Assembly (NCBI GenBank): GCA_965645245.1 | Contig: OZ287080.1 | Span: forward strand, 1,426,001 to 1,490,000 | Length of the DNA: 64,000 nt | From: Massalongia carnosa | Taxonomy: Eukaryota | Direction of reading: 5' to 3' | Part shown: piece after piece, positions 13,525 to 55,233 of the stretch | Position numbering within the stretch: position 1 is the stretch's first letter | How the letters are laid out: each line of letters opens with the position of its first letter | The notes under the pieces: generated by a model | Database searches by the model: none | The model's input: the letters and a program-made list of their open reading frames with translations, nothing else | Told to the model about the DNA's origin: nothing | Program-made: the position numbers and the translations under genes

Positions 13525-15944
13525 TCAATTCCCCCTTCCCCTCCCATCGTTCAAACCCTTCGCAATTCTTCGGCTGATCCAATCGCTGATAGCCATAATT
13601 GTCACCATCGGATTGACCCCGCTCGCACTTGGAAATATGCTCGCGTCCGCGATATACAAGCCTTCGACGCCCCATGCCTTCCCGTTAGGGTCCACGACTC
13701 CCTTCCCCGCGCTATCGCTCATCCGACATGTACCCATCTGGTGCGCGCTGCCCCATGAAGTTTCAGGGGAAGGTAAGCCACGTTTTTTAATTTCGTCGAG
13801 CCAGGCTTTGAAGCGAACGTCGTTGATACTTTCTTCCTCTTTTTCAGCAGTATCCCTTTCCTCGTTTTGGTCCTGCGGCACCGAGTTCCGCACAAAAGGG
13901 CGCACACCTGCGTGTCCGAGGAATATCTCGTGCGCACCCGCCACGTAAGCGATACGTGCGCAGGCCAGGAGACCCTCCATCGCGTGGACCTTGTCGAAGG
14001 CGCTGGGCGTGTAGGCGATGCGACAACGCCCGTCTACTGGATCGGCGAACACGCGGCCTGTGTCTCGATCGCGGACGAGTGATAGATGGCCGCTCATGTA
14101 GGGTAATTTAGCACCAAGAAGTTTGAAGTCCAGGCCACTTGTCCAGGGAAAGGTAGGAAGCACCCAAGAGGGGAGCATGGTCATGGCTTCGATCTGGTTT
14201 CTTGTTAGGGGAAGATATAACAGGAAGGTTGGGATAGCGTACCTTAGTACCATGGCCGTGGCCATCAAGATTCTGAAACTCATCGACAACGCTGGTGAGG
14301 ATGCTACCTTCCCATGGATTCGTAGGGCGAGGGTAGGTCGCGCCCACTATAGTCACTATACACGGATAAAATGTCAGTAGGCCGCTAGCGTGGGTATGAG
14401 GAGCATCGAACCTGGGTGAAGATGGAGATTCCGTCCAATTTGGGCATTTTTCAGGCCGCTTCGTAACAACAGAAGAGGACTTTGCAACGTCCCACATGAG
14501 ACGATCACTCGTTTGGCTTTAATGATAACTTCACGAGTGGTTCTATCGGCGTTGCTAACTCCGCCATTGCTATCACGCGATTTCCACAGCCCTTTAACCC
14601 CAATAGCAGTTTTCTTGCCATCAACCTCGTCGAAAAGAATTCTCTGAGTATCAAATCCCTCGATAAACTTTGCCCCTGCTTTTTCGGCGTCTGGAAGAAA
14701 TGACATTACAGGACCCTGCTTCTCGGCAGCCCCGCATCCAAGGGTGCAGTATCCGCAGTAGTGTTTCTTGCCAGCAGTGTTCTGAGGTATGAGCTTCACG
14801 CTATAGCCCAGTTTTCTCGCTCCCTCACAGAGAATCTGGTTGTTCGCAGAGTGTTCGAGATGATCCCCCGAGACCCCCATGCGCTGGCAAACACGATCTA
14901 GCGAGGTTTGAAATTCGGCGGATGTAAAGAATGGAAGTCCAGCGTTGGCCCATTCTTCCCGAACGAATCTTTGGGTTTGTAATGACGCTGACCAATTTAC
15001 CGTTCCACCTCCCCCAAAAGTCTGGCCGGCAAGAACAACAACACTCCCGTCGTCTGACTGCATGAGCCCTCCGCCCATGAAGAGATGAACCGCCGCATCG
15101 GCTTCTGACATTGGAAAATGCTCGGTTGGGAAATGATAACCCTTTTCAACTACAGTGACTTGATTTCCACTTTCCGCAAGATTTTTGGCGCAAACACCGC
15201 CGCCACACCCACTGCCCACCACCACGACATCAGTTTCGAGGAGTTCAGGTTCCGGACCAGGGGGAAACTGAATAAAACTATAGTCAAAACCTTTGCCGGG
15301 CTTGCCATGCACTGGGGCTCGCGGGAACCCAAGAGCCGGTCCAAGAGTGGGGCTATGCCTCGTCCACGTCACAGCGATAATCGAACCAAGAGCTTTAACA
15401 GCCTTTCTTAGGGGCGGAAGATATGATTGCGTCCAGTTCTGCAAAATCTGCTGACGTATGTGAATAGGCTGTAGGTGGAAGGAAGTGGTGTAACCAGTCG
15501 TCAGGAAGCATCCAGCTCGAGTGCTGCCATGATCGTCAATAGCGGTTTCTTGAAATATAGAGACATACAACCTTACTCCAGGGCTGAGAGGATCACTCTC
15601 ATTCCTTTCAGATCCTCCTCCCTTACATATTCTCCTAATGTTCTTTGCAAGGCGTCCCTGAAACCTGGTATGGAACTCGCGTTCTCCTCAAGATACCTTT
15701 GAGGTATCTCTACTTCGTTCCTGGCGGGTATTTGTTTAAGCCTATTAATAGCTGAAGTGTATTCGGCCTCTGGAAGGGAGATTCTGCCGGTGGAAGAGGT
15801 CGCTGAGGTTTCAATAGAGGGGATGAATGTGTCTCCTAATGCCATCAAAGTTGTCCATTGAGACGCCGTCAAGACTTCACCAGGGAAGGGCGGCGGGAGA
15901 GGACTGTCCAAGGGTGCAATAAGGCCTAGCTCTTGGGAGGCCAT
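13525..15944 (-). CDS. FAO1: Long-chain fatty alcohol oxidase (GMC oxidoreductase), ~4 exons
   Basis: FAD motif DVVVVGSGCGGG, LAGQTFGGGGTVNWSASLQT, HYCGYCTLGC, IGRNLHLHP, and C-terminal SAHQMGTCRM and IADASIFPSASGVNPMVTIMA. Confidence 0.92.
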
Positions 15945-16414
15945 ATTGAAGTATCGCGAGAGATCTCTCTGGTTTCTAGCTGACGAGAAACTTTAAACCG
16001 CTTGACTGTATGTATAGAAGAAGTCGTAGCTCTCAAGAACATAGAATTAACACTGCCTCCGCTAGATAAAGTCTATTGTGACGTAGAACATACAGGCTTT
16101 ACAAAAGCGGGGTTGAAGCTTCCTTTGTCACACACTTGTGTTTGAAGCGGAGATGAGAAAAATACAAAGCATAGACTAGCTAACGCGCAGACATAAGACT
16201 ATAAGAGAAGCGGGTATAATTATGAAATAGAGTTATATAGGAAGGCAAAGGATGTCTAGATCTCCTACGAGTATGTATTGTACATGCCATCCAGCGGAGG
16301 GTAAAAGAGAGGATTGCAACATGAATATAGATAGCCGAGTTAAACTCTTCCCGCCTTCTTGGACTGGAATGTTGAGAAAGTGCACCAGGGATGTCATCCC
16401 TAAGTCTGGATGCG

Positions 16415-17483
16415 GCACGCAGGTGACCAAAAAACGCGAAAATTTTTCGCTTACTACTCAACCTTTCTAACTTATGCTTAAAAACACTCATAACGCTACG
16501 CTGATGAGTCGAAGTCTCGTGATCCTCATTATAAGCTTTCAGACGAAAATATTGATCGTATGAATGAAATATTATAAACGTGAAGCTTGAAGAAAAGAGC
16601 AATGATCTGAATCCAATTGACTGCAGCAGCTGAGGTTTTCTTCGTTTTATGACGTACGCTTCAGAGAATAGTGAACAAGCGAAATTATTGAGAATTTAAT
16701 GAACACACGTTGTAAATTGCTTGGCGCTTCGGGAGTTGGTTTTTCCGGCTGAGTCATGGCAAAGGTAGTGTAGAAGTCAGGTGACAGTCTTTCATTTAGT
16801 TATTGATAGTTCAGCAAGCATGCTCGTAGCATAGCTATAACACATAACATCAACACATACAGTTCACATGCACGAGGCACAGGCACGAGGCATACAGTGA
16901 CTAGTCTAGCTTTTGTTCCCATTCTATTGTTCTTATTCTATTGTTCCTATTCTATTGTTCCTATTTTGTTGTTCTGTTCTTCTCTTGTTTGTTTGTTCTC
17001 CTGTACTTCCAGCTATAGTGGAGTATGCACACCACCTAGTTTATCCTTCCATGATCAAGTAATGACTGAAAAGAGATGATGATTTTATAATGAAAGTGAA
17101 TAAAGATTTCGAACATGATCCAGGAAAAGACAACGTCGTACGAAGATGAAAAGACGAGCATCATTGAAATACTATTTCAACTGCTTTCATTCTCTCGATC
17201 TTTCGTCAATTGAGAACTGCTGACAGATTCTCTAGCAAATCGTTGATCGTCAATCTCATTGAAATGATCAAATCACAATAGCTGCAAACAGAAAGAAGTG
17301 AACGAAGCTCTCTCAGATCAAGATCAACGAATGAATAGTATCAATGCTCAAAAGAATTGATGATGTGCTTGATATGAGAGGTAAAATAACTGAAGAATAA
17401 ATTGTTTGATGTAAATAAGATGTAAGGTGATTAGATAGCAAGCGAAAATTTTGGTGTTAGCGTTTTTTTGTCACCCGCAGTGC
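16415..17483 (+). mobile_element. Degenerate Tc1/mariner DNA transposon relic (about DD37E type), internally deleted and interrupted
   Basis: Imperfect inverted ends: gcacgcaggtgaccaaaaaacgcgaaaatttttcgctt (16415-16452) versus the reverse complement of aagcgaaaattttggtgttagcgtttttttgtcacccgcagtgc (17440-17483). Stop-ridden fragments read RDPHYKLSDENIDRMNEIL*T*SLKKRAMI*IQL (~16518-16690) and DFEHDPGKDNVVRR*KDEH..KYYFNCFHSLDLSSIENC*QIL...INE*IVSMLKRIDDVLDMRGKITEE* (~17077-17400), a decayed SPDLSPIEN transposase C-terminus. Confidence 0.8.
16921..16975. repeat. 14-bp minisatellite x~4 (attctattgttc(c/t)t)
   Basis: attctattgttctt attctattgttcct attctattgttcct attttgttgttct, read directly. Confidence 0.85.
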
Positions 17484-17783
17484 TCGATAAAAGGGCCCGA
17501 TCATCGGCCTGTCTCTAATCCGAAAAAGATACGAATATGAATAGTAAGTGTCATGATTAAAGCCCCCAAAAAGGCACAAAAGCGTAGCGGGAAACCTAAG
17601 GATAATCAGAGAACACCGTTACAAGAACCCCCTACAAGAGGACGGACTCGTCCAAAAAGGACTGACTCCTAAAAAGTTCAGAATCGCCAGGATGACAGAA
17701 CAAAGGTCGGAAAAGAAAAACGTCGGCTATGTACAAATCTGTTGATACAAAGCATCCCCGTTATGACAGAATCAATCGCAGAT

Positions 17784-19373
17784 TTACCGGCTGCTTTCCA
17801 TCCCTAGGATACCTCCAGCCCGACCATGCATGCTACCAGCGATGCGATCCCGCAAGCCTTTGAAGTTATCCGCTTGCGAGACCGCGCTAGTCGTCCTCCG
17901 TCGCGGGCTTCGCTTCAGCGTCGTCTGCGCTTCTCGCTCTTCCCGAGCTTCATCTTTTAGAACTTCGAAGCCGCCATCCTTCGTATCGTCCAATACCTGT
18001 TGCCGCGATCCTGCCGCTTGATACTGGGCTTTCCCCCCCGGTGGGGCAGGTTGTTGGTGTACGGCAGGAATGCATTGCACCGTAGTCGCATTTTGGGTCT
18101 CGTCGTTGTAAGGCTGAGAATTTTGCGTAGTGTTTTGGCTGGCGTCGGTATGTGTAATTTTTGTGCAGGCTTTATCCTGAGTGACCTTCTGTTCTGCCGC
18201 CCTACGAGAACGCTCATAACGAGCCGAGATATCTCCTCCGGTCCACATAGTTCCAAGGAACCAATCCCAGAATGTAGAACATGGCTGTGAGAAATTCGTC
18301 TAAAACAGTCAGCTATGTAACGCAAAGCGGAAGATCATCGCATACCTTTATACCCCAAGCCTGATGATGTACGTCATGATACCCAGCGTTGTTGGAGGAT
18401 GTATATTGAATCGGATCCCAAGGCAAAGAGTACCCACAATGATCATCGACAGTTTTAAGTGTCAAACCAGTGAAAAACCACATTGCTTGTCGAGTACTCA
18501 TATTGGCCACTTTATAACCAATGGTAGCTCCCAAAGTGTCGAGAAGGAATCCTTCAACAGGGTGGTTGTACAATGCCCCGTACGCATACGGAACATATAA
18601 ACGATGGTGTCGGGAGTGAAAAGTATCTATGGTTCAGTCAATCAATTAGAAGCGTCGTTGCAACCAGAGGATAAAAACTAACTGTATAGCCATTTGTTCA
18701 TGTGCATTGCGCGATGAAGAAAGTATTGCCACGTATCCACAATCATTATACCCAAGGCGAATTGAAGTATAGGTATGATGTACCAGTAAATTCCACTCGC
18801 AACCGAGACCTCCCACACGGCGAAGCTTGGAATGGTTGTTTGATCGCCATTGCCAGTTGCAATTACTTTTAACGAGGAATACTGGCCTCCAAGAATTGCA
18901 CCGGAAAGCACAGGATATGATAGCGCCAGGTTATCTGCTAAGCCGTTCGGGTTCACACCCACACTCGCTAGAAGCCCAGGGATGAATCTTTGCGCAAATC
19001 TTATTCTTCTAGCCCACACTGCAATATCGTAGTTCTCCTTACCAGATGTTGCTTCTGGCTCCGTCAACCCTATGATAATTCCGACGACAGTCTGTACAGC
19101 TTGTTGGATCAAGACATCCCGTATCACCTCCCAGCGCGTAACCCGGTTCCTTTTTGAGACTTCGGCGGGCGTGTGTAGCCGATACTGGGGAAAGTAATCC
19201 ATGGTGTCAATCCAGTGAAATAACATCGACAAACCCCAGTACGCGATGATCGGCAGGAATAAAATCACAAGGTTGTCGGAAATAGGCGCAATGAGTTTCG
19301 GGAGAGGAGTGAGATAGTATTCAGGAAGCGGCGGAAGGCTCCACGGATCGAGCTGGATTGAGGAATTCGCCAT
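17784..19373 (-). CDS. SUR2: Sphinganine C4-hydroxylase (fatty acid hydroxylase family), 3 exons
   Basis: His boxes DTWQYFLHRAMH, FHSRHHRLYVPYAYGALYNHPVEG, KTVDDHCGYSLPWDP and YHDVHHQAWGIK-TNFSQP. Introns near 18628-18683 and 18300-18346. Confidence 0.93.
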
Positions 19374-21452: not shown

Positions 21453-24400
21453 TCAGTACGCCGCGGCAACAAAAGTATGCAAGCCGCTCGCTACCCTTTG
21501 GACACCCCTTCCCTTAGCTCCGCTTTCCCACCGTCGCGACCCACTTATCCTCCTCAAGTTATTCAGATGCTCCCTAACTCCTCCTTCCGGTACGATAAGC
21601 TCCCATTTGCTGGGCGCCTTGAACGCGCCGAAGCCGTCGTTGGCGCTGGCCTTGCTGTTGCTCGACCACTTCCCGATCGGCAGGAAGCCAGCGAAGGATT
21701 TCTCGTCGTGGAATGTGTCCACTACCTGCTCGACCAGATCCGAGTACTCGCTTGGGTCTTTTTCCCACCTTCCTAGACGCTGGTGTGCGCGCCTTAAAAG
21801 CTCAAGGTGAAGGTGCGCATGGCTGCTAGCGCTCTCAACGCTACCGCTATAGCTGTCGTCGCTGACAATGTGTTTAAGGATCTTTTCGTGCACGCCCATA
21901 GCTTTCTGAAATTGAGCTGCGCTGGTATAGAGTTCCGCCAGGAGTGTGTGCATCTCGTACGTGATTCTGTCATGTGTGAACCATACGCGGCGTAGATTGT
22001 AGCAAATGTCTTCAAGAACGTGTATAGCGCTTTCACGGGATCCATGGCTGAAGCGCACTTCGACGAGGCGGCGGCCAATTTGAATGATCGTCGGAAAAGA
22101 CCAGGAGGATTGAGTGTGGCGTGACTCCCAGAGTTGGGTGAGGATCCACTGCAGAAATCTAAGGTTAGCGCTGTAAATGGAGAATAAAAGAGGGAGGGAA
22201 GGCTTACTTCGAGATCAGCAAAATCCTGAACTTCGCCCAGCAAGGTAACAAGCTCGTTCAGTTGAGTAATGGGCGTCTTGGTAAAGTCAACCTTAATCTG
22301 TCTACTAGCCTCGAGAATTTCTTTTAGGAAAGTACGAGACAATCCTAGCATCTGCTGCTGACTTTTCTGATCCGGGCATTTTTTGGCCCCACGATTGGCT
22401 AGGTAGAGCGCTAGTTTGAACCCGGTACTAATGTTTTCCTGGTCATGGAAACCATGATGGGATTGAGTGAATTGCCAGATGCAATTGGCTAGGTCAACGG
22501 CTTCTTGGAACTTAGATTGTTCGAGGAGAATGTGCACAGCGGTGGTGCCGGAGCCACACCCCGCCTGGACCAGATGAACTTCGTGCTGGGATTTTCCAAT
22601 TTCCTCGAGGAGTATGTTGAAAAAGTAGCGTGTTGTAGTCTTGTTAGTCTTGATTGAGGAGCCCAGGCTTTTCAGAAATGCCTCGAAGAGCTCTTCGTCA
22701 ATCTTCGAGTCCTGCACGTCGTGATATTTGCTCCTTCGGAAGTATCGAAGGCGGGCACCTTGCACCATCGTCGTTTCGAAACGTGTCTTTTGAGCTAATG
22801 ATCGAGTATAGGCATCGTATAGTGCGGTTTCTGTCAAGAACGACGCCATGATCTCAGAAATACTCGCATCTTTTGCGCCTCGTAATGTTTCCTGGTAAGC
22901 GGCTAGGAATATGAAGCATCGACGATCAGCTTGTTGGTCGATTTTGAAACCAAAGCTGTCACACGACCTAGTGTCCCGGGACACAATTTGGCGACGCAAC
23001 TCTTCAAGAAGTTTGTAAGCTTCATTTGTGTAACCCTGCGCCCCATAAATTCTAGCCAGGCTCCTTGAAGAATTGCATAATCTTCTAGAGTCCTTCTCTT
23101 TCACCACGATTTCAATAACGGCACTTTGAAGCGTTCGTAGGAGAACACTTTCGAGCTTTTGATCCTTTCGACTCTTGTAAAAAACTGCAAGCTCTTCAAG
23201 ACTGAGAAGTGTCCTTTCGTGGGAGCAGCCTAATTGGGCTTTGTAACTTTCGAACTCCTCCATGCAGAGAGTTACAGCCTTGGAGGTATATGTAGTGGAC
23301 GTGTGGCTGTGCGTAACATAGAGACGAGTTAAGCGCGACTTTGCGGTAGTTATGATCGTGGTAATAGTAGTGGTCTTTGTGAACGTCTGTGTTTCTTTGA
23401 ATGTCTCTTCGTAGATCTCAATGGCCTCATGAATATGCTTCTCACTTCGCTCGTTAATCTCGGCTAGTCGCAGAGTTGCTCTCAATGTGATCTCTGCTCG
23501 AGCACCAAAGACATGAATGCACACTTCGCGGAATTCGATTGTGGTCTGTCGTAATACTGTGTATGCCACCTTCACTTCCTTCTCCAAAATATAGAAATAT
23601 CGCCGGTATATTTCATCCACCCGTTCAGAACTTATCTTGTACTCCCGGGTACGTACCAGAATAGTCCTCCACAGATGGGCGTATATCTTCTGTGCATCCG
23701 TCCAGCGTTTCTCCGACTCGTAGATCCTGGTAAGAGCAAGTGCTGCTTCTATCGCCCCATGATGGCACATATCGAAATCATGATCGAGGTTCACATAGAT
23801 CTTGAGATAATAGCCCTCGGCGTCCTTTTGTCTATGTTTGATAGATAGTTCTCCCAAGCGATATAGGGTCTCTATCGTCAAGGTATGAGTCGCCCCTAAC
23901 GTACAAGAGTAGTCTTCCCAAAGTTCTCGATATACTTCAATGGCTCTTTCAGACCTCTTTGTACTTTCGTAAAAAAGTATCAACTCCCTGGCGCTTCGAG
24001 CCACCAATTCATCCTGAATGTGGAGGCTGGATTTTGTTGCTCGAAAAAGACGGATGAATATTTTTTCTGCCTTTTCGATTTGGTGTTCGTGAGAGTAACA
24101 GTGCGCAATGCGTATAGCCATCTCAATGGCCTCGACAGTAAAGTCTTTCGGGAGTATGACATTCTTTTCATCCGAAACAAGAGATAGCCAGAGACGGGTT
24201 AGCACTCGGTGGCAAATAGCAATGGCCTCTGAATAGCGCTCCTTGCGTAAATAGAAAGAGCTAAGCGTTTCACAGCTTCGAATGGTCGAGGTCGTTATTG
24301 TGGTGGTTGTTATAGTGGATATACATGACTCATATACCTCCTTTAGAATGGTCTCCTCAAAGTAAGTTGTTTCTTCTATGTAATGTTCCTCTTGAGTCCG

Positions 24401-27400
24401 GATCTCCAAAGTGAGCTCAGCTATTAAAATAGCGACAGACGTAGCTTCTACAGTATGCTGCTTGTGGATTCTTTTGAAGAATCCCCACACAGTCTTGAAG
24501 ACCTTCACAGCAACATCAAGGATCCGCAGCTCGTTCATTTCCTCACCAATGGCCTTGATCCATATGATTAAACTCTCGGAGTGGATTTCTTCGATTTCAT
24601 ACTCAATCCACAAACCGCGAAGAATGTTCTCCGCTTCAACATAGCGTGATTGTCGTCTCAAGAACCTTACATATGCAAGCGTTACTTCTATCTTCCGCGC
24701 ATGGATTTCGGCACTGCCCTTTATGTGACAAGCTACGATGATACGTCGCCACAAAGTGATAATGAGCTCCTCAGCTGCAACGAGCTCTTTTTGAGCCTCG
24801 TATACCTCGAGCAAACGGAGCTAAGGGTACACGTTAGAGAGCCATCAGTAGAGGGGTTTTGTAACTTACGGTAACTTGAATACGGCGAATGTCGATCACG
24901 TCCATGCTTTCTTCGGCTTTCTCGTATAATGATCTGATATATATCAATATATCTTCGTATCTGGACTCTTTTTGAAGAACTATAACAAGGCTCCGAGACA
25001 CGACTGTGGTTTCGGAATGGAATTCCCCATAGTGCTCAACACATGCCTCGTAGACTTCTCTATAGATCTTGGTCGCTAAGACAATCTCTTCGATTTCGGT
25101 GTAAAGTTGTGCAAGTAGTTTGCTATATCGTATCATCTCTTCGCTGCTGTGGCCGTGATGGTGTTTATGCGACTTGATAACGACTTTGAGCATCTCCTCT
25201 CTACGGTTGGTGATCTCAGTTCTTGTAGTAGTGGTTATCGAGCTAGTGCAGGTAATATATCTTTCAGCGCAGGTAGTTGTGATGATGCCATATATTCCTA
25301 AAATGGTTTGGCTAAGTATAGAGGCTTGATAGTAGTAGTTGCTGGCCTCCATAGTCCTGAAAACCCTCTCATACGTGCGAGCTATTGTGATGAGACTCTG
25401 AAGCACAGCCTCGTGTGTTTCGCCGAGTATAGTTTTACGAATGTTCAATGCGAGTTGATGCATCTGTAAAACTTCGCTTGGGGGGAATTGGGATTCCCAG
25501 CACGCATCTTCAATCTGTACAAGAAATACGGAGCGGGTAAAGTAACGACGAAACTCGGCAGTCAAGTCGTGCTTTTCGCTTGATTGATGCATAGAAGAAG
25601 AGCGAAAATGGCTTATCCAATATCTTGTCGTGTACTCTAACAGGTGATGTGTTTCAAATAAGTGATCGATAGTTCCCGAGTCCAGCACATTCAGCTTGCA
25701 TTCTGTCCTCTTCGTCAGATGACTGTTTGCATAAGCCAAGCACCGATATGTCAAGTCACGGTGAGCATCTTGTAGCGATATCAGAGCTTTGCCGTTCTTC
25801 GACAAATCAATCAAGTGCTGACGGATGGCGGTATTGCGAAAGCGTATTATGCCATCTCGTATCTCGATCAATGATCCGCAGCTCTGATGAACTTGATCTT
25901 TGATATCGATGGTCCTGAGAATCCGCTTGCTACCTTGGACGTCTGTTTCCAAAAGAGACTGGATTTCCTTCAAAGTCAGCGGTCTCTCAGAGATAAGGAG
26001 CCACGACAGGACGAGCTTGGTATCGGGTTGCGTTAGATCCACCTGAGACACCAGTTTTTGGGTAGCCTCGAAGGTTGATTTGGGGGCGTTGTTAAGAGCT
26101 TGGTTAAAGCCGGTATGAGTTTTCTCGTTTTTGAGTAACTGAACGATATACTCTGCTAGAACGAAGCTCCCGTTAGCACCATCGACGATCCGGTGCACTA
26201 TATTCTTCTTCTCCTCCTCCTTCCGATCATGAAAGTGGTGTAAAGAAGCCAAGGATCGGTAGACGAAGCGCTCAAGGTCGTCATGCATATATTTAGGTTG
26301 CAGCGAGATCGATTTTGTTGGTTTGGAGAACGGTTTGCTTAGTGGATGGGAAAACACAACGCACTTTGTCGTCATATGCTTCTTAGACATTCCATACAGA
26401 CGATCCAAGAACTCGAGTCTCACGGTTTCACCCCCGAGCATTTGGTCTAAGCCGTCGATAACCAAGATAGTATCATTGCCCACATCGAGGGCTTTATCAA
26501 ATGCTCTCCATAACGCATTCTCGATTTGGCCGGGGGTATTTGATCTGGTAGACATTTCTACAGCTGCACACAAGAGCTTATAAAACGAGACGTTGCCGAC
26601 GGTTTGTTCCAACGATTGAAGCAAGAGGCGCTTGATTACACTCAAGGAAGTCGATTCGCTCCTCATAGTAGAATCTGTTCTCGATTATCAGCTTTGTTCC
26701 TGACAATGGCGAACATTGCGTACCAATCATGACCGAGTTTACATCATACGACTTCCTGCCCAAGGATTTTTCTAGCCGTTCCATTGTCCAGCTGGCTAAG
26801 GTACTCTTGCCAGACCCGGGGCCCCCAGTAATAAGAAACATGTCCTCGGAACTGCGGCAAAATTCCAGAAGGTGAGGTTGGAACCATTCACATGTAAAGT
26901 CTGCGCGGTCGCTTCTTGAGTTCATCGTGTCGGTAGATAACAGCCGCAAAGTGCGATCTTGAGGAGTAAGCCACCGTCGTATGGTGCTCATATCCACGAT
27001 GATACCTGATACAATCTGTTAGCGCACGTCTGTTTGGCAGTTGCTCTATTTTCCAGGACGAAGTACTTCGCAGCTCCACGTTGCGCTCCAGTTGGCATTC
27101 CCAAATAGTGTTTGAAACTTTGTCGCGATGGCTGAAAAAATGGTCTATTTTTTGACCAAAAAGACTATGAAGATCTTCAGCGTCGAAGGACGAGTTGGCT
27201 AAATCAAATTAGCTTGGAGCTCGAAAAGGCTAAGAAAACCCTACATCTACTTTTCTTTTGATATGTGACTGTTATTTCAACCACCAACAATAGCAGTTCT
27301 GAGTAAACTCCCACCAACTGGTCTTGGGTAGCATCATTTTCGGTGAAAAGTGTGCGATTCCGGAGTATGGAGGTCAACACCAGGCTCATTTTGTAGAACA

Positions 27401-37936: not shown

Positions 37937-40574
37937 GGGAACGGATAACAGGACACCACTTTGGTTAGATAAACACCACCTCCGGTTAGATAAACACCAT
38001 CTCCGGTTAGGTAAACACCGCTAGCCCAGGTAGGGTAGATTCCTCGGCCCCGTCCGCCTTCTTCCCCTTTTAGGTCTAGCAGTCCCCATCCCAACATTGA
38101 CACCTCAAGAAAAAATTCAATTCAGCTTTCAACCATCGATTACTAGACATTGGATTTGTCGATTGGCACTGTCTTCATGAATCGCACCCTTTATTTGAAG
38201 CTTAGTAATGCAAATCAGTTGATTGGAGCCGCATTCGCTGCATCCCCGCCAATTCCATCTGCTGCATCCCCGCCAATCCCGTCTCCCCTTCCTCGACCAG
38301 CTCTGCCTCGACTAGCCCTAGCCCTAGCTCGGCCAGTCCTTGTGTTTGTCTCAGCTCTTTCACCAATCCCCCCTCCCCCTCCTCTCCCTCCCCCTCGTCC
38401 TCGCCCTCGCCCTCGCCCCCGACGTCCTACCCTGCCTGGTGTAGTATTGGCTCGATGAATAGCTCGTTCCACCTCCGGAGCTATTGCATCAGCTGTTTCC
38501 ATTTCAACCCGTTCGAATTGAGATGGTAATCGATGAGTGGAATTGTCAAATGCCTCCGCTCGTCTGTTTTCCGCTCCCTGAGGGCGACCACGAGGTCGGG
38601 CTATCTCCGGTTCCTCACTAGAAGAAGAGGATTAATCAAAGCAATCGGAGGGGCGCGCTTTTCCAACCTTGAACTGTTGTTAGTAGCTGATCGCTGACCA
38701 TCGATCAGATGGCAATAACCTACTTCCAATGCGGGTGCACATCTTCCAATTTCAGACTTCCTTCATTCTCGAATAATCGTTGCTGAATCAGATGACTACA
38801 AGGCAAGCCAGTGATGGTAGTGAAGACGTTGGTACAAGCTGGAATAACAGTCGGTCTTCCTGTTAATAACTCGTATTGGTGTAGAATCTTTTTCAGGGCA
38901 TAGGGACTGATAAATGCTCTCAGTTGCTGAAAGATAACTTTGCGAAGATGAAGTGGAAAACGTGTTCTGGCTTCTTCAAAAGCAATCAGATGATCATGAT
39001 ACTGATTTGTTAGTAGCAGATTAATGCCGTCAACTACCAGCTTCAAATCTCCAGTCGATGATCCTAATTGACGTTTTAATACTGCATGTGCGCCTTCCCC
39101 TCGCGACGTTACCGTTGTCTCAAAATGCAGCACCTTGTTGGTGTAGCATGCCACGAAGCGATCGCGATGATTATCAATGTAGGTGGATTTCAAATATCGA
39201 ATACAATCTTCATGAGAAGTCATATAGGTAGCAGAAAACTGCTCCCATAGCTTCCAAAATTGAGGCTCGGTTGCTGCATAGATCACTGATTTCCAATCTG
39301 ACAAAAAGATCTTCCATTCCTCATTGTCGAAAGATTTTTTGCACTTTGTCAACACATTCTGATTGATGTGCCAGATGCATAGCAAATGATTGATATTTGG
39401 AAAGACTATGGAAGATGCCAACATTAATCCTTTCTCCATGTCGGACACGACAATAATCGAATCAGGAAGTTCCAATCGAGAATACACCTCCTTCAATTGC
39501 TGTAAAGCCCAGATGTAGTCCTCTGCTGTCTCCGTGATCAGAAAGCAAAAGGCGACATAAAAGGTAGTATGTAGCGCGGTTTGTCCGCTGATGACGAGAA
39601 GAGGCATTTTGTATCGATTGGTCTTGTACGTGCAATCCATAATGAGAACTTCATGATTATCTATCAGAAGAGTTTAGGAACAGCCCTTGATGAAGAAGAG
39701 ATGCGTAATCTGCTGATGAATGTCTTGTTGAAAGTTGTACACCCAATCCTTTTCGTCAAACTCACGAATCAATGCCTGAATAGGAGTCAATGGTCCCAAG
39801 ACATCACGTCTCATCTGCGCCTTTAAGTTGTAGATGTCCCGAGGTTTAAACATCGGATTCACAATGATCTCGGCATTGGGATCATGAGGACTGAGATCTG
39901 CATTCACATCGGGAACACGCAGACTAGACAACACCTTTGACGCCGACGTTTGTACTGTTAACTGTCTGGTAACGTCATCCTTTACACCGGTCAGAGCGAT
40001 TTTTCTCAAGGCAGGATGAGAGCCAGCAAGACTGGACGGATGATTGTGTGTCCCATTTACCACCTCCAAAAACCACACCTCGTCGTCCATTTTGGCTGTC
40101 AGGGCAAATGGACAAGCAATTAGTCGACTGCTGGTGTGCCGACGATCCTGACCCTGCGGTTCTCTGACTTTTCCACCTCGGTCGCATTTTAACCAAGCTT
40201 TATTTCTCACTCCCAGCTTGGTTTTCTTGGTTCGAAGAAGCACCACGGCGTAGGCTTCGGGGGCGGCATGCTCATTGACTCTAAGCAACAGGTCTTCTAG
40301 TGAGGCAAAGGATTGACTATCTTCGGGAGGTCGAAGCGGCATGACGACGTGGCGGCGGCAGGGTGCCTGCAGATCAAATGTGAAATATGAGTGCAAGGAT
40401 GAGGTGCAGGTAGAATGTGGGAGTTTCAACCGCTAGACCTAAAAGGGGAAGAGGCGGGCGGGGCCGAGGAATCTACCCTACCTGGGCTAGCGGTGTTTAC
40501 CTAATCGGAGGTGGTGTTTACCTAACCGGAGGTGGTGTTTATCTAACCAAAGTGGTGTCCTGTTATCCGTTCCC
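37937..40574 (-). mobile_element. Mutator-like (MULE) DNA transposon with ~144-bp TIRs and 8-bp TSD TACTTAAT
   Basis: TIRs 37937-38080 and 40432-40574 (gggaacggataacaggacaccactttggttagataaacacc...) carry few mismatches. TACTTAAT lies at 37929-37936 and 40575-40582. Confidence 0.95.
38215..40342 (-). pseudogene. MULE transposase with one in-frame stop and one frameshift
   Basis: FAR1/WRKY-like N-terminus (KCDRGG..CPF..HNH), DDE motifs MDCTYKTN, VVSDME, LLCIWH, SRGEGAH, then GLPCSH and AT-hook-like RPRGRP. A TAA at 39674-39676 splits the same frame. A -1 shift is needed near 38615 after the probable intron at ~38674-38723. Confidence 0.88.
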
Positions 40575-43466: not shown

Positions 43467-45434
43467 TTTGAACGACTCGCACAGATATATGTAGAAGAAG
43501 CTGTTATGTGGCGGGTATTGAAGAAGAAGCGTCTCGGAAGCGATATGTTATAATCACACGTGACGACGGATACGGGAGAGAGCGTTGCATATGTGGTGGG
43601 ACAAGATACCCAGGTTGACGAAGAGATAGCTATTATCGACAGTGACTGGTCGTCGGTGAACCAAAACACGGAATCGGTTGACGTCAATAGGCGAGATAAC
43701 GGGTATAGAAAAGCGTGAGGTCGGATGTAGATTATGAGTAGGGAAAGGGAGATGAAATATGCGGTTTGACTCTGTCGCTGTCAGGGACTGGCGGCGCACA
43801 AGACAGTAGAGAAGCGGTGAAGAGGAGAAGAAAGAAGAAAGGAGAAAAGTCGAGATGGATGATGAATAGATATGTACCGCACGGATAGAGCCAGAGAGGA
43901 GAGACGTGGACAGGAACGCACAGGGACGATAATATCCATTCTCGTCGTCGTATTATAATATCACTCTATGGAGATAGGTACTTTAGGGTATCCGACGTAT
44001 CGCGATACAGCGTAACTGTAGGGTTTCCGATGAGTTAATTACCCGCAGAGACCGGCAAGCTTTCCGGTCAGATCATCGGGTTTGCCTACGAGTATGGGTC
44101 AGTATTATTACCTAGTATTATACGGGAGTCGAACGTTGGAGTTTGGGTTGAGGGTTGGGACGACTAATATCGATCTTCACGACCAAATCTCAAGTTTTGT
44201 GGGCATCGCGATGTGAACCACACGGCCTGTCGTCCGCATTGGGGCTAAGAGCCATCAGGGGATAACGCTAGCATGCCCCTAAAGTGTTCCCGGGAAAGTT
44301 TAATTCGCTTTGGTCTCGCGAAGGAGGAGGATGAAGGAGGGGCGCTAGGGTCGTTTTGGGGCTTTGTGGCTATTAACTTTGAACTGCCGGGGGATCAATC
44401 GGAGTCGCGTGCAAATGATATTCGCGCATGCACGCTGTCTGTCTCTCGTTCATGTACGGGGTAATTGTTCATTATTATTAGAGTGTTATCATCAGCTCGA
44501 TTATCGTTGCGACTCTGATGCCTCTTGAGGTCAGGTCAAAGCTGAAGTCTTTCCCTCTGATCCGAGCCATCCCTTGGTCAAAGAGTCAAAGTGAATCCTT
44601 CATCACGATCACGAAACACCATGAACATTTCCATGCGACGGTGCTTGGAATCGGCCGTGGAACGCACCCCGGATCTCCCTTCCCCCCCAACCCCCCTAAA
44701 CCCTGGCCCGAAAAATAAAAACCATGGACTTCATATCGTCACCGGCTGCTCTTGTCGTTCTCGCGGCTTCCTCTCCCTTCACGCAGGGTCCATTCAACAT
44801 GCGACTCGATGTGTGGATGCCAACTTCGAATGAGAAGATGTGATCTGGCATCTGTATGATGATTATGCATCATAGCGCTCATGCAATAGATCTTGAAAGC
44901 TCAGAGCGCAGAGGACAGTGTTTGTGGGACGAGCCTGAAAACCCATCGGAAAACAAACTTGTTCCTTACACCGTATGAGGATGTAAAGTAACTTACCCGT
45001 TTCATCCGTCCTGACAAGATACACGATACATGGCGTACAGATGTGGTTAGAGCAGCGTATTCGGTACGTATCTAACTCCCCGATAAGAGATAAGGAAAGC
45101 CACTACCCACACAACGAGGCATCCTTGTTTGTACTTGTACCTTGTCCGTTGCCAATCGTTTCATAACGATCCTTGCCGAAATCCCCCCGGAACCCCGTCC
45201 GGAGCGCCTTCACGTGGATCCGGATCCTTTGCGGAATAACTAACTGAGGCTATCGCCCATCCATCACCTCAATCTGCCTTGACAACGTGGGCTCGGGGTT
45301 GGAAGGGCCTTCATGGTATGAAATAGGTGATTGACATGAAAACCTCCAAGCTTGGCCGTGGTCGTTTATCAAGATTTGACTACGTTCAATTTCTCGCTAC
45401 CCATCGATAATACGCTCGGTTTGCGACCGGGCTA

Positions 45435-46957
45435 CCCGTGCAGCTTAGGCGCACCCAGTCGTCCCGCCTGAGTGCTGCACAATCACCGAGCAGTTTCAAT
45501 CACCGAGCACTTTTTTCCCAACTTTTATTCCTTCACCTTTGAAATTTCCCCCCCCCACCATCATGTCTTCCAACTGTAAGGAAATTGAGACTCGAATTCA
45601 GGAGGCCATTCAGCATCTAAAAAAAATCTTCGTGCGAAACGCGCGAAAGTGGCGCGTGATTTTAACGTGCCCATAGGTCGGCTTCGTTCCAGGCTCGAAA
45701 ACAAGCCATCCGCGTCTTCTATTCGTGGAATACATAGAAGACGTTTAACACCCGAGCAAGACCTTACTTTAGATAAGCACTCCATTAGATCAAAAGATCC
45801 GGACAATCGTGAGAGTTTAACCTCCATTGAGTCCATCAATGGTGCAGGCGGCTCCATTCCATCTTTTCTCATTTTGACGGGAATGATGATCATGAATTCT
45901 TGGTCAAACAATAATCTAAACGAGGACGTGGTTTTGTCTACGGCCGAGACGGGTTATTCGAATGATTGGTTGTCATTGAAATGGCTGAAGCACTTTGATA
46001 CTCATTCAATCAAGACTCGAAAGGGGGCATACCGACTTCTTCTGATGGATGGATACGGATCGCATCATACCATTGAATTCATTGAATATTGCAATGAGGC
46101 CAAGATAATTCCATTTGGTCTGCCCGCCCATACCACGCATCTGCTACAGCCATTGGACGTCGTCGTTTTTCAGCCCCTGAAATATTGGCATTCTGAAGCG
46201 GTTAAAGAATCTATGGCTCAGGGGGATGAGACATTTACCAAAGTGGAATTTCTGAATGCATTTAACTCTTTTCGAAGGAAAACATTCAAAAGATCGACCG
46301 TTTTGTCTGCATGGAGACAGGTAGGGCTTATTCCATTTAATCCATCTATTGTATTGGACAAGCTGCCCAAGCGGAAACTCTTTTCGGAATTTTCTAGCCC
46401 ACCTCGTCATCCCGATGAGGCATACGAAGCTGCATTTAGTACTCCTCGAAATTTTCAGGAGTTAAAAGAGGCTTCGTACAACATTGAGTCCGTTTATCCT
46501 GATGCCATGAATTTACATAAATTCATGAAAGGGGCATTAGCTGTAGCTAGAAAAGACGAGCTTATTGTCGATCAACTAGCTCATACAAAGGCAGCTGAAA
46601 ATGCTCGTAGAATAAGGGCCAATCAGACAAAGCGTGTCATTCAAAAAGGGGTTATTCGCGTGGAAGACTGCAGAAAGATGACGTCGGAGCGAATGGAGGA
46701 GGAGAATCGATTGGAGACAACGCGCCAAAACAAGCTAATACTCAACCAACGAAAGAGATGGGGGCCAGTAATGAGGGAATTGACTCGAAAGACACCATAC
46801 TACATTCAGGGCGGGTCATATGCCTTTTCATGTAAATAAATCGTGATCAATTGATGGTTGTAGGTGAGATGGTGGAAAAAAGTGCTCGGTGATTGAAACT
46901 GCTCGGTGATTGTGCAGCACTCAGGCGGGACGACTGGGTGCGCCTAAGCTGCACGGG
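45435..46957 (+). mobile_element. pogo/Fot1-like (DD35D) DNA transposon, internally deleted, 84-bp perfect TIRs, TA TSD
   Basis: TIRs 45435-45518 and 46874-46957 are identical by eye, flanked by TA at 45433-34 and 46958-59. The transposase has NRESLTSIESI, LLLMDGYGSH and HTTHLLQPLDVVVFQPLK. Confidence 0.95.
45563..46839 (+). pseudogene. Truncated DDE_1 transposase (frameshift in an A8 run; CENP-B HTH and first catalytic Asp missing)
   Basis: ATG 45563 (MSSNCKEIETRIQEAIQHL) is out of frame with ORF 45649-46839 by one base at the A-run 45619-45626. The sequence jumps from RRLTPEQDLTL to DKHSIRSKDPDNRE with no NxDETG motif. Confidence 0.8.
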
Positions 46958-48272
46958 TATCGGAAAGGACCATAGGACATGTTTGCTTTACGATTGATGC
47001 AAAACCGGCTGTCTGATGGCAATTGGCCTTCAAGGAGTAGTTGAATTACTGCTGTATAGAGAGTATCGGCTTCTCTGCCGTTACACGTGGGGATTAAACC
47101 AGGCACACACAAGCCTCCAAGAGAACTCGGCCGGGCAGCCACGCAACTCCCGGGAAGCTTTGAAGTCAACAACCACGGATACCAACGCTCTTTTTTCATA
47201 AATCCCATTCAAAAGGTGTCGGCCGTTGCTCACCCGTCACCTCTTGAATCATGCCCGAAATGAGCCGTGAATGCTGGTAGTAGTCCAAGGTTGACCGCTG
47301 TTGGCCCTGGTTGATGGTGATTGCGTTTGCTCCAAGACGGAAAATTGTTGATTCTACCGCTTGAGACGGCAGGAAAAATGCTTACTGTCTCGCGGGCTTG
47401 CTTCTATCACGATAGTTTGGGCGCCGGGGTAAGGGATGTTTTGAAGGTTTTCGCTTTCGGCGATGCTTTTCTTGGAAGAAATAGACTAGCCAACCGGGTC
47501 CGCGATGACCCAACTTGTTATTTGCGGTGTAATGAAACAAATCAGATCTGTGTCCCATATTGGCCTTCTCATACCTTGAGTATGTGCTTGGAAAAACATT
47601 ATTGAAGGTGCATTGCATGTTTTTACACCTTCCTGCACATTTTCTGTCCTCTGTGCGATCGTTGCAGTTATTGTAGGCATTTTATTTCCCGAGATAGGAA
47701 TATATGATTTCGTTTCAAACACAATCCATGATCTACGCTCCTATATCTAGGGTAGTTAAACCCGCGAAAAGTGTTTACGACGGAAAGCTATTCGCGCTCG
47801 TCGCGGATGAAAGCATAGATTGCATTGCTTTCCCTGTTAACGATATGAGCCACTTTCTTCGTCCAGATGAGATTCATATGATCTAGATCTGATCGATCTG
47901 ATCTCACTACTGATCGGGTTCTGACTAATCACCGTGGTATTTTCGGTGCATCATGTTGCTTTTCATGTCATTTTCCGTGTTTGTTTTTTGCGGTTGCATT
48001 CCAAAGTAGCCGTGCCCAAGAAGAACTTCCGTGTCCTTGAAAAGCCTCTTGTAGTTTTCAAGGGTCTTATTTTACTGGCCGGGTCGTGATGTTAGGAATG
48101 AAAACTGTCTGCACACTTTCCACGCGTTCGTCCCCTTCAAGCCGACCTCCTTCCTACACCCGTTCTATTGAACTAGTATATATTAATGGCTCTATGGCTA
48201 TGTAACGCTCATGGTATGTGTGAGCGTGGTAACAAGGACGAAGAGTTACTCTATACATAGTACATACATATA

Positions 48273-52290: not shown

Positions 52291-53159
52291 TTACTCCCCC
52301 TTTTCCGCCTCCGCCTCCACCTCTCCCTCCACCTCTCCCTCCGCCTCCCCCCACCCCCGACTCCTCCCGCCCCGTTTCCAAACCACGCGCACGCCATCCA
52401 CGCGCAACCCGCGATCGACGCTCTTGCACATATCCACGACCGTCAGCGCGGCGCCGACGACGCCCGCCAGGGCCTCCATCTCGACGCCTGTCTTGGCAGT
52501 CGTGTCTACGCGGACGGAGATGTGGACACCGCCGTGGGGGGGGATCGAGCGGTGGGGGGGTGAGGGAGGTGAGGTTGGGTGAACGGGTGAAGGGAAGGAC
52601 GATAGAGGGGCGGCGTTGTGGCCATCAATGGCCTCGACGGTCACGCTGATACCTTCGACTGGTATGCCGCTGTGGCAGAGCGGGATGAGGTCGCTGGTGC
52701 GCTTGACGGCCATGATGGCGGCGACGCGGGCGACGGCGAGGACGTCCCCTTTCTTGAGGGCGTGCGCGCGGACGAGGGGGAGGGGGGTGGGGTTAGAGAA
52801 GGCGACGTGACCGATTGCGAGGGCGGCGCGGGAGGTGCTGGGTTTGCTGGTGATGGGGATGACGTGGATTGTGGAGGTGGGGGTTAGGTGGGGAAGAGAG
52901 GATGGGAGGGGTTGTGAGGTGGCGGTTGGGGGAGACGGAGTGGGTTTGGATGGAGGCTTGCATGGGGAGGTGGTGGAGTGAGATCGGAGGGAATATGGTG
53001 AATGAGTCGAGGAGAAGACGTGGAACGGGATACTCGTGTGGCGCGATGGTTTAAGGTGGTATGCTAGATGCGTCGCTAGGACTCGTAAAGATGGGGAGGC
53101 TTTTTGGGTAGGAATGTTGAAAGGTGAGCATGCCGGTGGAAGATACGAACATGGTTCAT
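52291..53159 (-). CDS. cnxABC: MoaC-type cyclic pyranopterin monophosphate synthase exon (3' part of the cnxABC/MOCS1 locus)
   Basis: LPHLTP...KPSTSRAALAIG, KKGDVLAVARVAAIMAVKRTSDLIPLCH, TTAKTGVEMEAL, LTVVDMCKSVD, KRGGRS. No in-frame ATG precedes the domain; it is reachable through intron 53160-53266. Confidence 0.88.
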
Positions 53160-53258
53160 CTACTTCAACGATAGAATCAGTAATTAATTCATTGCCAAAC
53201 AATGAACTATTTTCATCATCTCATCAACTAGTACAAATTCAATCTTTTTTAAATAAAC

Positions 53259-54596
53259 CTACCCACCAATCAAGATCATCGGCCGGTTCTTCATATTCTC
53301 TAACTGACCCATCCCTGCATGCTTCTCCTTTTTCCTCTTCACAGCCATGCCGATGACTTCGAGCAGCTCGTGCTCTCTTTGCCCGTACCCCAAAGGGCCC
53401 GTACTGGCCGGCATTGCATGTCGTCGGTCCATTTCAACTCTTTTCATCGCGTCCATTGTAGCTTCGTCAATCGGTTCTCCTCCATTGTCCCTCCGCATCA
53501 GATCTCTCAAGCTGACTTCGGCGTTTCCGAATAAACAGACTTTAAGGTTCCCATCGCTTGTGATTCGTAGTCGATTGCAACTTCCGCAAAAGTTATGCGT
53601 CATACTTGTAATGAATCCAATTTTACCCGCGAAGCCAGGAACTTGAAAAGTTTTGCTGGTATTGTTCTTATGATCATGGACCTTTTGCAGCCCCGGGTAT
53701 TTCACCCGAATCATGTCCAGCATTTCCTGATAACCCAGCATCTTTTCTCGCCTCCATCGGTTCCCTTCAAAAGGCATATATTCGATAAATCGTACTTCAA
53801 TCTCCTTTTCCCTTCCCATTTCTACGAATGGTATAATTTCTCGGTCGTTGTTCCCTCGCATGACCACGCAATTGATTTTTAACTTGATGTTTGCACCGAG
53901 CTTGTTCATCTCCAAGATCCGATCTATACTTTTCACCACAACCTCGAAACCCTTACGTCGAGTCATGAGCTGAAATTGAAAAGGGTCAAGGGTGTCCAGA
54001 CTAATGTTCACTCCCGTCAAGCCCGCGTCAACCATGCTATCGAGCTTTCGATAAAGGGCAATGCCGTTGGTTGTGAGGCATAGCTCTCGAAGACCACTTT
54101 GCCGAAGCTCCCCAAGCGAGTGCATCAAAGGGAGGATGTCTCGCCGTATGGTAGGTTCGCCTCCGGTGAGTCGGATCTTGGTGACGCCTTGGGATACGAA
54201 GAGAGCGGAAAGATAAGAGATCTCCGGAGTGGTGAGAAGATGGGAGGCCGGAGATAGCGGCACACCTTCTTCTGGCATGCAATACGTACAGCGAAGATTG
54301 CAACGTTCTGTGATGCTGATACGGAGATAGTCATGCTGACGGGAGAATGTATCGGTCAGGAAAGAGGAAAACGGTTTGGCTGCGTGAAAGTTCTCTTGAC
54401 GGGTAGGCACCGGAATGTATTGGACGGATCGCGTGTTATTGTGCCGGATGGATGAATTTTCTTCTACAGGCTTGACATTTTGACTCGCCACAGCAGAGTT
54501 CATACGATGGCCGCATTGACCAGATCGACACAATGGAGCCACAAATTTTAGAGCTGCATGTTTCTTGCTGAACGAGTGAGACAGCAAAAGCGCCAT
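53259..54596 (-). CDS. cnxABC: MoaA-type radical-SAM GTP 3',8-cyclase (molybdenum cofactor biosynthesis step 1)
   Basis: YLRISITERCNLRCTYCMP (CxxxCxxC), KIRLTGGEPT, RFIEYMPF, NFCGSCNRLRITSDGNLKVCLF, terminal NRPMILIGG*. The basic, acid-free N-terminus resembles a mitochondrial presequence. Confidence 0.95.
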   Translation of the reverse strand: MALLLSHSFSKKHAALKFVAPLCRSGQCGHRMNSAVASQNVKPVEENSSIRHNNTRSVQYIPVPTRQENFHAAKPFSSFLTDTFSRQHDYLRISITERCNLRCTYCMPEEGVPLSPASHLLTTPEISYLSALFVSQGVTKIRLTGGEPTIRRDILPLMHSLGELRQSGLRELCLTTNGIALYRKLDSMVDAGLTGVNISLDTLDPFQFQLMTRRKGFEVVVKSIDRILEMNKLGANIKLKINCVVMRGNNDREIIPFVEMGREKEIEVRFIEYMPFEGNRWRREKMLGYQEMLDMIRVKYPGLQKVHDHKNNTSKTFQVPGFAGKIGFITSMTHNFCGSCNRLRITSDGNLKVCLFGNAEVSLRDLMRRDNGGEPIDEATMDAMKRVEMDRRHAMPASTGPLGYGQREHELLEVIGMAVKRKKEKHAGMGQLENMKNRPMILIGG

Positions 54597-55233
54597 GATG
54601 CAATGATGGTGGCCAACGGATTGAGCAAATCATGGCTCAAATTTAGAAGACAGAAGACAGGAGTGTTTTCAAGAGAAAGGAGCATTTGGGAGCAACTGAG
54701 ACTTGTACTCCGTACAGTCACAATATTTACTTTACCTTTACCGCTTGCATTCGCTTTGTCATTCCACACCTTATAAAAAGTATCTCCGACATCTCTGACG
54801 ACATCGATCACGTGGAAGAAATTCTGCATGGATAGCTACCCATTTGAGGTTTTTAGATGTTCATTGAGTTGCCGCCTGCAGAAGGACTTCATGATTGCCA
54901 AATTGGCTCTAGTTGGTCATGTTCAATGAAGGTCACGTGAACACAGAATACTCTACGCGCATGGTCACACTTCATGCTTCGCGTACTGCATGGTGCGACT
55001 CCATTGACATGCAAAAACTCACGAGCATGTGCGGAGCATATTTTTCGAATGATGTTATTTATTTAACGAGTGTGCTCGTTAAGCAACACCCTTTGAGTGG
55101 AGTCCAGATCCCCATCACAACTCTGCTGGATATATCAACGGAACGTCTATATGTACATCATTAAGAATTCATCATTGGGAACCCAGCAAGTTAACAAGAA
55201 AGCCATTCTCCCGATAACGCCACGGGGAATATG

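Follow-up and report, generated by a model that had tools for sequence, protein, structure and literature searches.

The DNA analysed here is a 64,000-nucleotide stretch of the Massalongia carnosa genome (GCA_965645245.1, contig OZ287080.1, positions 1,426,001 to 1,490,000), hereafter termed the window and numbered from its first letter. The genome comprises 52.2 Mb in 25 contigs, and the named homologues of its proteins belong to lichen-forming Lecanoromycetes. At 16416..17482, on the forward strand, lies a non-autonomous, internally deleted Tc1/mariner copy of the DDE_3 transposase family, in which family alignment reveals hypermutation of CpC to TpC. Its left terminal inverted repeat (16416..16456), where CC and GG are mostly spared, and its right one (17436..17482), recognised from the inverted arms 16419-16456 and 17436-17478 and from the alignment, enclose two transposase remnants on the same strand. 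The 5' remnant (16477..16713) derives from the DNA-binding region and the 3' remnant (17055..17435) from the DDE region and 3' untranslated part. The copy carries two internal deletions and aligns in parts, at 84-87 % identity, with four relatives (L002, L003, L004 and L006), among which the near-intact L004 retains a 399-aa open frame with a Pfam DDE_3 match. Both the terminal inverted repeats and the transposase family that characterise Tc1/mariner elements were found, while no TA target duplication was evident in the alignment.

Between the remnants, in the place of about 370 bp of lost transposase, sits a nested high-copy short repeat of approximately 340 bp (16714..17051; no strand assigned) with a 14-bp tandem tract. 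Its matches in L043, L054, L122, L123 and L139, at 69-85 % identity, lie next to or within other transposons, and its summed contig depth reaches about 290 times that of the flanks. As it retains 22 CC and GG dinucleotides in 338 bp, against 14 in the 732 bp of Tc1 parts, it was probably inserted after the mutation burst. Within the interval that the initial annotation had marked as a relic, the hypermutation is thus borne out for the Tc1 parts, while approximately 16714-17051 belong to this different repeat.

Within the remnants CC and GG are nearly absent while CA and TG remain abundant, and the counts agree with those first reported. Positions 16518-16695 contain two CC and one GG (CC/GG observed/expected ratio 0.27; CA/TG 1.09), and 17050-17400 contain one CC, two GG, 24 CA and 28 TG (0.14 and 1.32, respectively), against a CC/GG ratio of 1.05 for the whole window. 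When 17050-17400 was shuffled 5000 times, CC plus GG averaged 20.7 with a minimum of seven, compared to the three observed. The depletion also exceeds that of neighbouring DNA of matched GC content, as sixteen tiles of 351 bp, taken from the surrounding 260 kb and including two that overlap the element, contained 12-35 each. Compared with the family majority, the window copy has C>T changes at 46/63 CpC sites, 9/95 CpA, 2/69 CpG and 5/70 CpT, with 16/234 non-CpC cytosines changed overall, such that CpC rather than CpA was targeted, as the initial annotation had held. Both strands are affected (C 9/15, G 33/43), 29/39 CpC sites are changed in 17055-17483, and the changes show a directional excess (64 C>T or G>A, 10 T>C or A>G, 13 transversions). 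All eight alignable TGG codons of L004 are TGA in the window copy (three of three in the 5' and five of five in the 3' remnant), in keeping with the reading of every inferred tryptophan as TGA, and the few CpA-type hits also noted include one CAA>TAA in 16477..16713. The proposed hits in conserved motifs require a minor amendment, as the family motif is SGHGSG rather than the assumed SGHGPG, and the proline of FEHDPG reflects a T>C change.

The repeat-induced point mutation (RIP) indices of the window Tc1 parts are 0.42 (TpA/ApT) and 1.90 (substrate), where thresholds of >0.89 and <1.03, respectively, apply (PMC3897900). The standard indices cannot see the CpC signature, and all relics measured score negative. 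Neither the TpA enrichment nor the CpA preference of canonical RIP is seen in the window copy or the other hit copies, and the phenomenon is thus not classed as canonical RIP, although its working is RIP-like. Two elements of the window serve as un-hit internal controls, and the claim that they are younger and essentially untouched is borne out. In the element at 37937..40574 (reverse strand; 20 copies at 95-100 %), which we take to be Mutator-like from the resemblance of its open reading frame, 3/317 CpC sites are changed. In that at 45433..46959 (forward strand; start first given as 45435; five close copies at 98-100 %), presumably pogo/Fot1-like, 1/166 are changed.

The mutated letters are real and older than the split of the samples that share them. 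Short-read contigs of two samples from one study (X1 and X2), possibly the source of the assembly, are identical to the window over 15900-16802 and 16980-18000, in pieces none of which covers the whole stretch. A sample from another study (X4) has the same insertion, with two differences in 16536-16802 and five in 17163-18000. The locus is also contained in an independent lichen metagenome run, while no RNA data set is listed as containing it. An assembly artefact is ruled out by the match of the short-read contigs to the mutated letters.

Beyond the window, 133 copies from fourteen DNA-transposon family sets were surveyed, excluding those with fewer than 200 sites that could be compared; as searches of the genome yield the best-scoring copies, damaged ones are under-sampled. 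Nine of the 133 have a CpC excess at p<0.001. Pooled, these nine are changed at 279/753 CpC, 47/1095 CpA, 22/746 CpG and 43/824 CpT sites, while rates in the remaining 124 copies are 2.1 % (CpA), 1.4 % (CpG), 1.2 % (CpC) and 0.8 % (CpT). The distribution of CpC change is all-or-little, with less than 2 % in 102 copies and 20-74 % in seven. In the hit copies isolated CC became TC in 142 cases, CT in eight and TT in nine; the third base mattered (CCA 145/273, CCG 39/110, CCT 44/170, CCC 50/204), while the 5' neighbour was near-neutral (32-41 %). Among eleven copies tested for strand bias, one, L002, was one-stranded (0/29 versus 12/69; p=0.016). In four hit copies the ends of the alignment are spared: 0/21 CpC sites are changed at less than 60 bp from them, compared to 10/39 between 60 and 150 bp and 159/368 beyond 150 bp. 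The view of a repeat-targeted C>T process is thus upheld across several unrelated transposon families and can be refined: a minority of copies is hit, CCA is changed more than CCG and CCG more than CCT or CCC, and a separate mild CpA excess, which grows with age, occurs in older un-hit copies (CpA 386/10162, 3.8 %, versus CpC 132/7460; 1.3-2.1 % elsewhere).

The signature is found in Tc1, pogo and LTR-retroelement classes. A double-hit pattern in the Tc1 motif (Pro>Ser with Trp>TGA) occurs at four places in the genome. Two of these, newly found, are saturated fragments of the same family that lie 16 kb from each other and form one linked pair, while for most hit copies no linked partner was identified. 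Next to it is the relic of an LTR retroelement, no shorter than 3.5 kb (L252; G000:C1:1088001-1091600), with a CC observed/expected ratio of 0.04-0.14, 15/17 aligned tryptophans turned to stops and 33 Pro>Ser changes. The relic adjoins an intact un-hit relative, and nearby insertions of younger age, whose direct repeats are 99.6-100 % identical, are clean. CCT accounts for 22/26 surviving CC in this genome, against 26-27 % in ordinary DNA. Flanks and genes have CC ratios close to 1, and all of the most strongly depleted stretches are transposon relics, in the less than 2 % of the genome that was read and with single-copy DNA lacking an outgroup. The C>T change at CpC is dense, two-stranded, repeat-associated and copy-specific.

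The double-hit pattern was further found at fifty loci in metagenomes, half of them with and half without a Tc1 match. Eleven of the 25 Tc1-matching loci are CC-poor at the match (observed/expected 0-0.55), while the other fourteen are not. Ten of the eleven belong to one record series, collapse to five loci and represent a second fungus (L250, also L203, L210, L213, L219, L226, L229, L234 and L242), saturated to the extent that L250 contains four CC and three GG in 8033 bp. A kinase from the flanking DNA of this fungus shares 55 % identity with its orthologue in the present genome and is placed by FastTree, weakly, outside the clade containing the latter. CCT again predominates among surviving CC (7/7, 35/62, 99/200 and 65/119; background 26-27 %), and this fine rule, common to distant hosts, suggests homologous machinery in both. 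CCN rates from pairwise spectra were not used for this fungus, as the reference, L230, is itself partly hit. The CpC signature recurs in several classes of element and in this second fungus, distant from the first, in conflict with the current generalisation about RIP. The multi-kilobase CC/GG-poor blocks of the second fungus also contain relics of non-transposon genes. A short metagenome contig of another record series (L243) carries a Tc1 relic with a CC ratio of 0.24 near the match.

A PF00145 profile search of the genome returned four loci, such that genes for all three families proposed for inspection (RID, DIM-2 and DNMT5) are present, under names which we take from domain content, tree position and general knowledge. 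DIM-2 (C6) looks intact, as its BAH and methylase domains lie in an open frame of 1166 aa, and DNMT5 (C18) and a canonical long RID (C15) are apparently intact too. The fourth is a short RID-like gene of a divergent clade (G000:C17 about 565750-567475; L038:3750-5476; E=2e-28). It has SPPC and EET motifs, an N-terminal match to RID-like homologues and no BAH domain, and fits what we take to be the RID-family rule, a PC catalytic motif with E[QE]T replacing ENV. Its clade comprises thirty rows (supported at 98 by FastTree and, for 22 rows, at 100 by a quick IQ-TREE analysis), is distinguished by the catalytic loop SP[AM]Q...EDKQ, versus SPAH..., and has Heterodermia aff. obscurata as its sole named member. 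Two RID paralogues are frequent in Lecanoromycetes and some Leotiomycetes (homologue tree; PMC4352252). An ESM Atlas search gave generic methyltransferase clusters only.

The C17 paralogue has likely decayed. Its last exon has an in-frame TGA upstream of the recognition domain and final motifs, at a position occupied by Asn or Thr, not Trp, in the eight relatives with that exon. The catalytic domain breaks 7/57 clade-invariant columns (zero to two in 28 relatives), and the motif I Asp, present in 215/216 RID-like proteins, is lost; no other copy was found in the genome search. The rid gene of Fusarium requires stop-correcting A-to-I editing (PMC7306014, PMC10776026), and the last-exon stop alone is hence no proof of gene death. 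An upstream TGA was not counted as a lesion because the start is uncertain, nor was the break in reading frame that separates the N-terminal from the catalytic part, which a putative 52-nt intron (weak donor, good branch site) would bridge.

The signature is probably the work of a mutator that is directed at repeats, specific for CpC and RIP-like in its action. By analogy with Neurospora RIP, homologous pairing of two copies in the premeiotic nucleus would serve as trigger, upon which a RID/Masc1-like member of the C5-cytosine-methyltransferase family would flip and deaminate the target C, or methylate it for deamination. The +1 preference would be for C in place of A. In the hit copies CCA is changed most and CCT least, and the CpC>TpC change turns TGG into TGA and Pro and Gly codons into Ser, Asp or Glu, which kills the transposase; dispersed copies are rarely hit, and some blocks reach saturation. 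The mechanism first suggested, in which an enzyme of the RID/Masc1 or DIM-2 family has changed its specificity, remains a candidate. The divergent C17 paralogue, now apparently decayed, may be the leading, if tentative, candidate enzyme, although the intact RID (C15) or DIM-2 acting in RIP would fit the data almost as well. It is possible, though doubtful, that the lichen-associated subfamily with the SP[AM]Q loop is a CpC-specific repeat mutator which in effect reads the classical CA motif with a shift of one base (C*CA). Lineages that kept it would then erase CC and GG from repeat blocks, while its decay here would have been followed by waves of untouched transposons.

Several observations weigh against a pairing-triggered CpC mutator of this kind. 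The signs that point to pairing dependence and premeiotic timing are indirect, and the divergent RID is not tied to the second fungus. Four of the nine hit copies (window, L121, L151 and L171) were picked for CC-poverty, and five were not; about ten mildly CC-poor windows (observed/expected 0.44-0.61) in 260 kb have no match in the partial repeat set; and large near-identical families are mostly untouched. Beyond the hit ones, 11/18 unselected copies whose other divergence amounts to 1.5 % or more are un-hit (12/18 at p<0.005). No young copy is hit at p<0.005 (0/68), compared to 7/61 older unselected ones (Fisher p=0.004). This fits a switch-off, yet under a rate that stays constant and low such a contrast would arise with P=0.18, and the extinction of the process in this genome is hence suggestive only.

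Mutagenesis of heterochromatin during vegetative growth, in which a DIM-2 with CpC preference mutates repeats independently of pairing or sex, would be an improbable source of the signature. The apparently intact DIM-2 of this genome would permit it, and in Zymoseptoria Dim2 methylates both CC and CA and increases C>T change in repeats, although the mutations there fell at CA (PMC8016269). A slow vegetative process should moreover track age, as CpG and CpT changes do (dispersion across copies 1.3 and 1.2, respectively), whereas CpC change is the most overdispersed (3.9; CpA 2.5), and DIM-2 better suits the mild CpA excess of the older un-hit copies. There is a slim chance that a non-methyltransferase cytidine deaminase of the APOBEC/AID type acted on single-stranded transposition intermediates, which would accord with copy-specific bursts and the strand asymmetry of L002. 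The specificity of these deaminases depends on the bases 5' of the target, with the second C of CC being edited by APOBEC3G, while here it is the first C that changes (142 versus eight) and the 5' base is neutral. Cut-and-paste elements and mixed blocks of 8 kb are, furthermore, hit on both strands.

It is very unlikely that the mutations arose elsewhere, in a lineage whose CpC system was active, and that the hit copies came from there by introgression or on large mobile elements, even though a distant fungus is saturated with the same signature and most resident copies are clean. The hit copies belong to resident families (84-92 % identity) with ordinary gene-rich flanks, the mutated insertion is shared with an independent sample, and import would relocate the process rather than remove it. 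A by-product of ordinary CpA RIP, UV damage or assembly error is scarcely credible. Lichens are UV-exposed, and UV favours a 3' pyrimidine and CC>TT change. CpC>TpT double changes have been reported under CpA RIP (PMC8959702), but the product here is TC, not TT or CT, and CA/TG is intact. A symmetric search for CpA RIP (CA-poor windows, TAG-stop pattern and per-copy tests) gave only a mild excess: none of the 133 copies exceeds 16 % change at CpA, and the seven Tc1 copies with the TAG-stop pattern include none that is CA-poor, with CA and CC normal. Assembly error is countered by the short-read contigs. The RIP-like mutator with CpC specificity thus remains the preferred explanation.

Elsewhere in the window, a long gene at 21453-26684, NACHT/TPR-like from its appearance, is mildly low in CC/GG (observed/expected 0.59-0.85 in several 500-bp windows), with no second copy among the loci compared. 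MoaC-like and MoaA-like genes of molybdenum cofactor synthesis, likewise labelled from appearance, lie side by side at 52291-54629.

Compared to the RIP of Neurospora crassa and other Pezizomycotina, the present system is similar in its dense, directional, two-stranded C>T change, repeat-associated and copy-specific, in the nonsense codons in transposases and in the presence of RID-family genes. It differs in that Neurospora RIP converts CpA to TpA, while here CpC is changed (TGG>TGA), CA/TG is spared, TpA is not enriched and the indices are negative. Varied contexts reportedly occur among the 49 genomes of Clutterbuck (2011), where a CpC case is possible. In APOBEC3G hypermutation it is the second C that is edited (TGG>TAG), in single-stranded cDNA of one strand; it shares the CC target and copy-specific bursts, while here the first C is changed, on both strands and in DNA transposons too. 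The Dim2 of Zymoseptoria tritici is alike in linking repeat-directed C>T change to a methyltransferase, with some CC methylation, and resembles the mild CpA excess seen here, but its action is mitotic, gradual and at CA, as opposed to bursts at CC (PMC8016269).

A k-mer screen of 1,239 genomes by Badet and Croll found a common CpA preference among RIP-like defences (PMC12543289), CpA-type indices are given for the lichen Endocarpon, and CpC>TpC is a formal category only in RIPCAL, in the parts of these sources considered. No report of CpC-dominant RIP was found in the literature searched, in part (including PMC5555474, PMC2621366, PMC5602860, PMC5737583, PMC4522978, PMC13535494 and PMC7882544), a search which lay outside Clutterbuck (2011) and supplements, including the k-mer tables of PMC12543289. 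Amselem et al. (2015) described CpA, CpT and CpG signatures, with CpT and CpG in Botrytis, Sclerotinia, Magnaporthe, Tuber, Microbotryum and rusts, and tied these non-CpA contexts to particular Dnmt1-family genes, which constitutes a likeness to the present case; CpC is not listed as a signature there, and the term is absent from the parts of the text considered (PMC4352252). Relative to the CpA, CpT and CpG signatures known from the literature searched, a CpC-targeted form of RIP would be new. The scoring of RIP relies nearly everywhere on a loss of CpA and a gain of TpA, and as a CpC system is negative on CpA/TpA indices, lichen-associated fungi may be misclassified as devoid of this defence. 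Should the proposed role of the divergent RID subfamily hold, it would represent the first natural specificity swap for mapping RID target choice, and a whole branch of RIP would have been missed by CpA-based surveys. As in Botrytis and Sclerotinia, which likewise have two RID/Masc1-like genes and two signatures (PMC4352252), the co-occurrence of two RID paralogues and two signatures in one genome allows comparative or heterologous tests of how RID produces mutations and chooses its dinucleotide.
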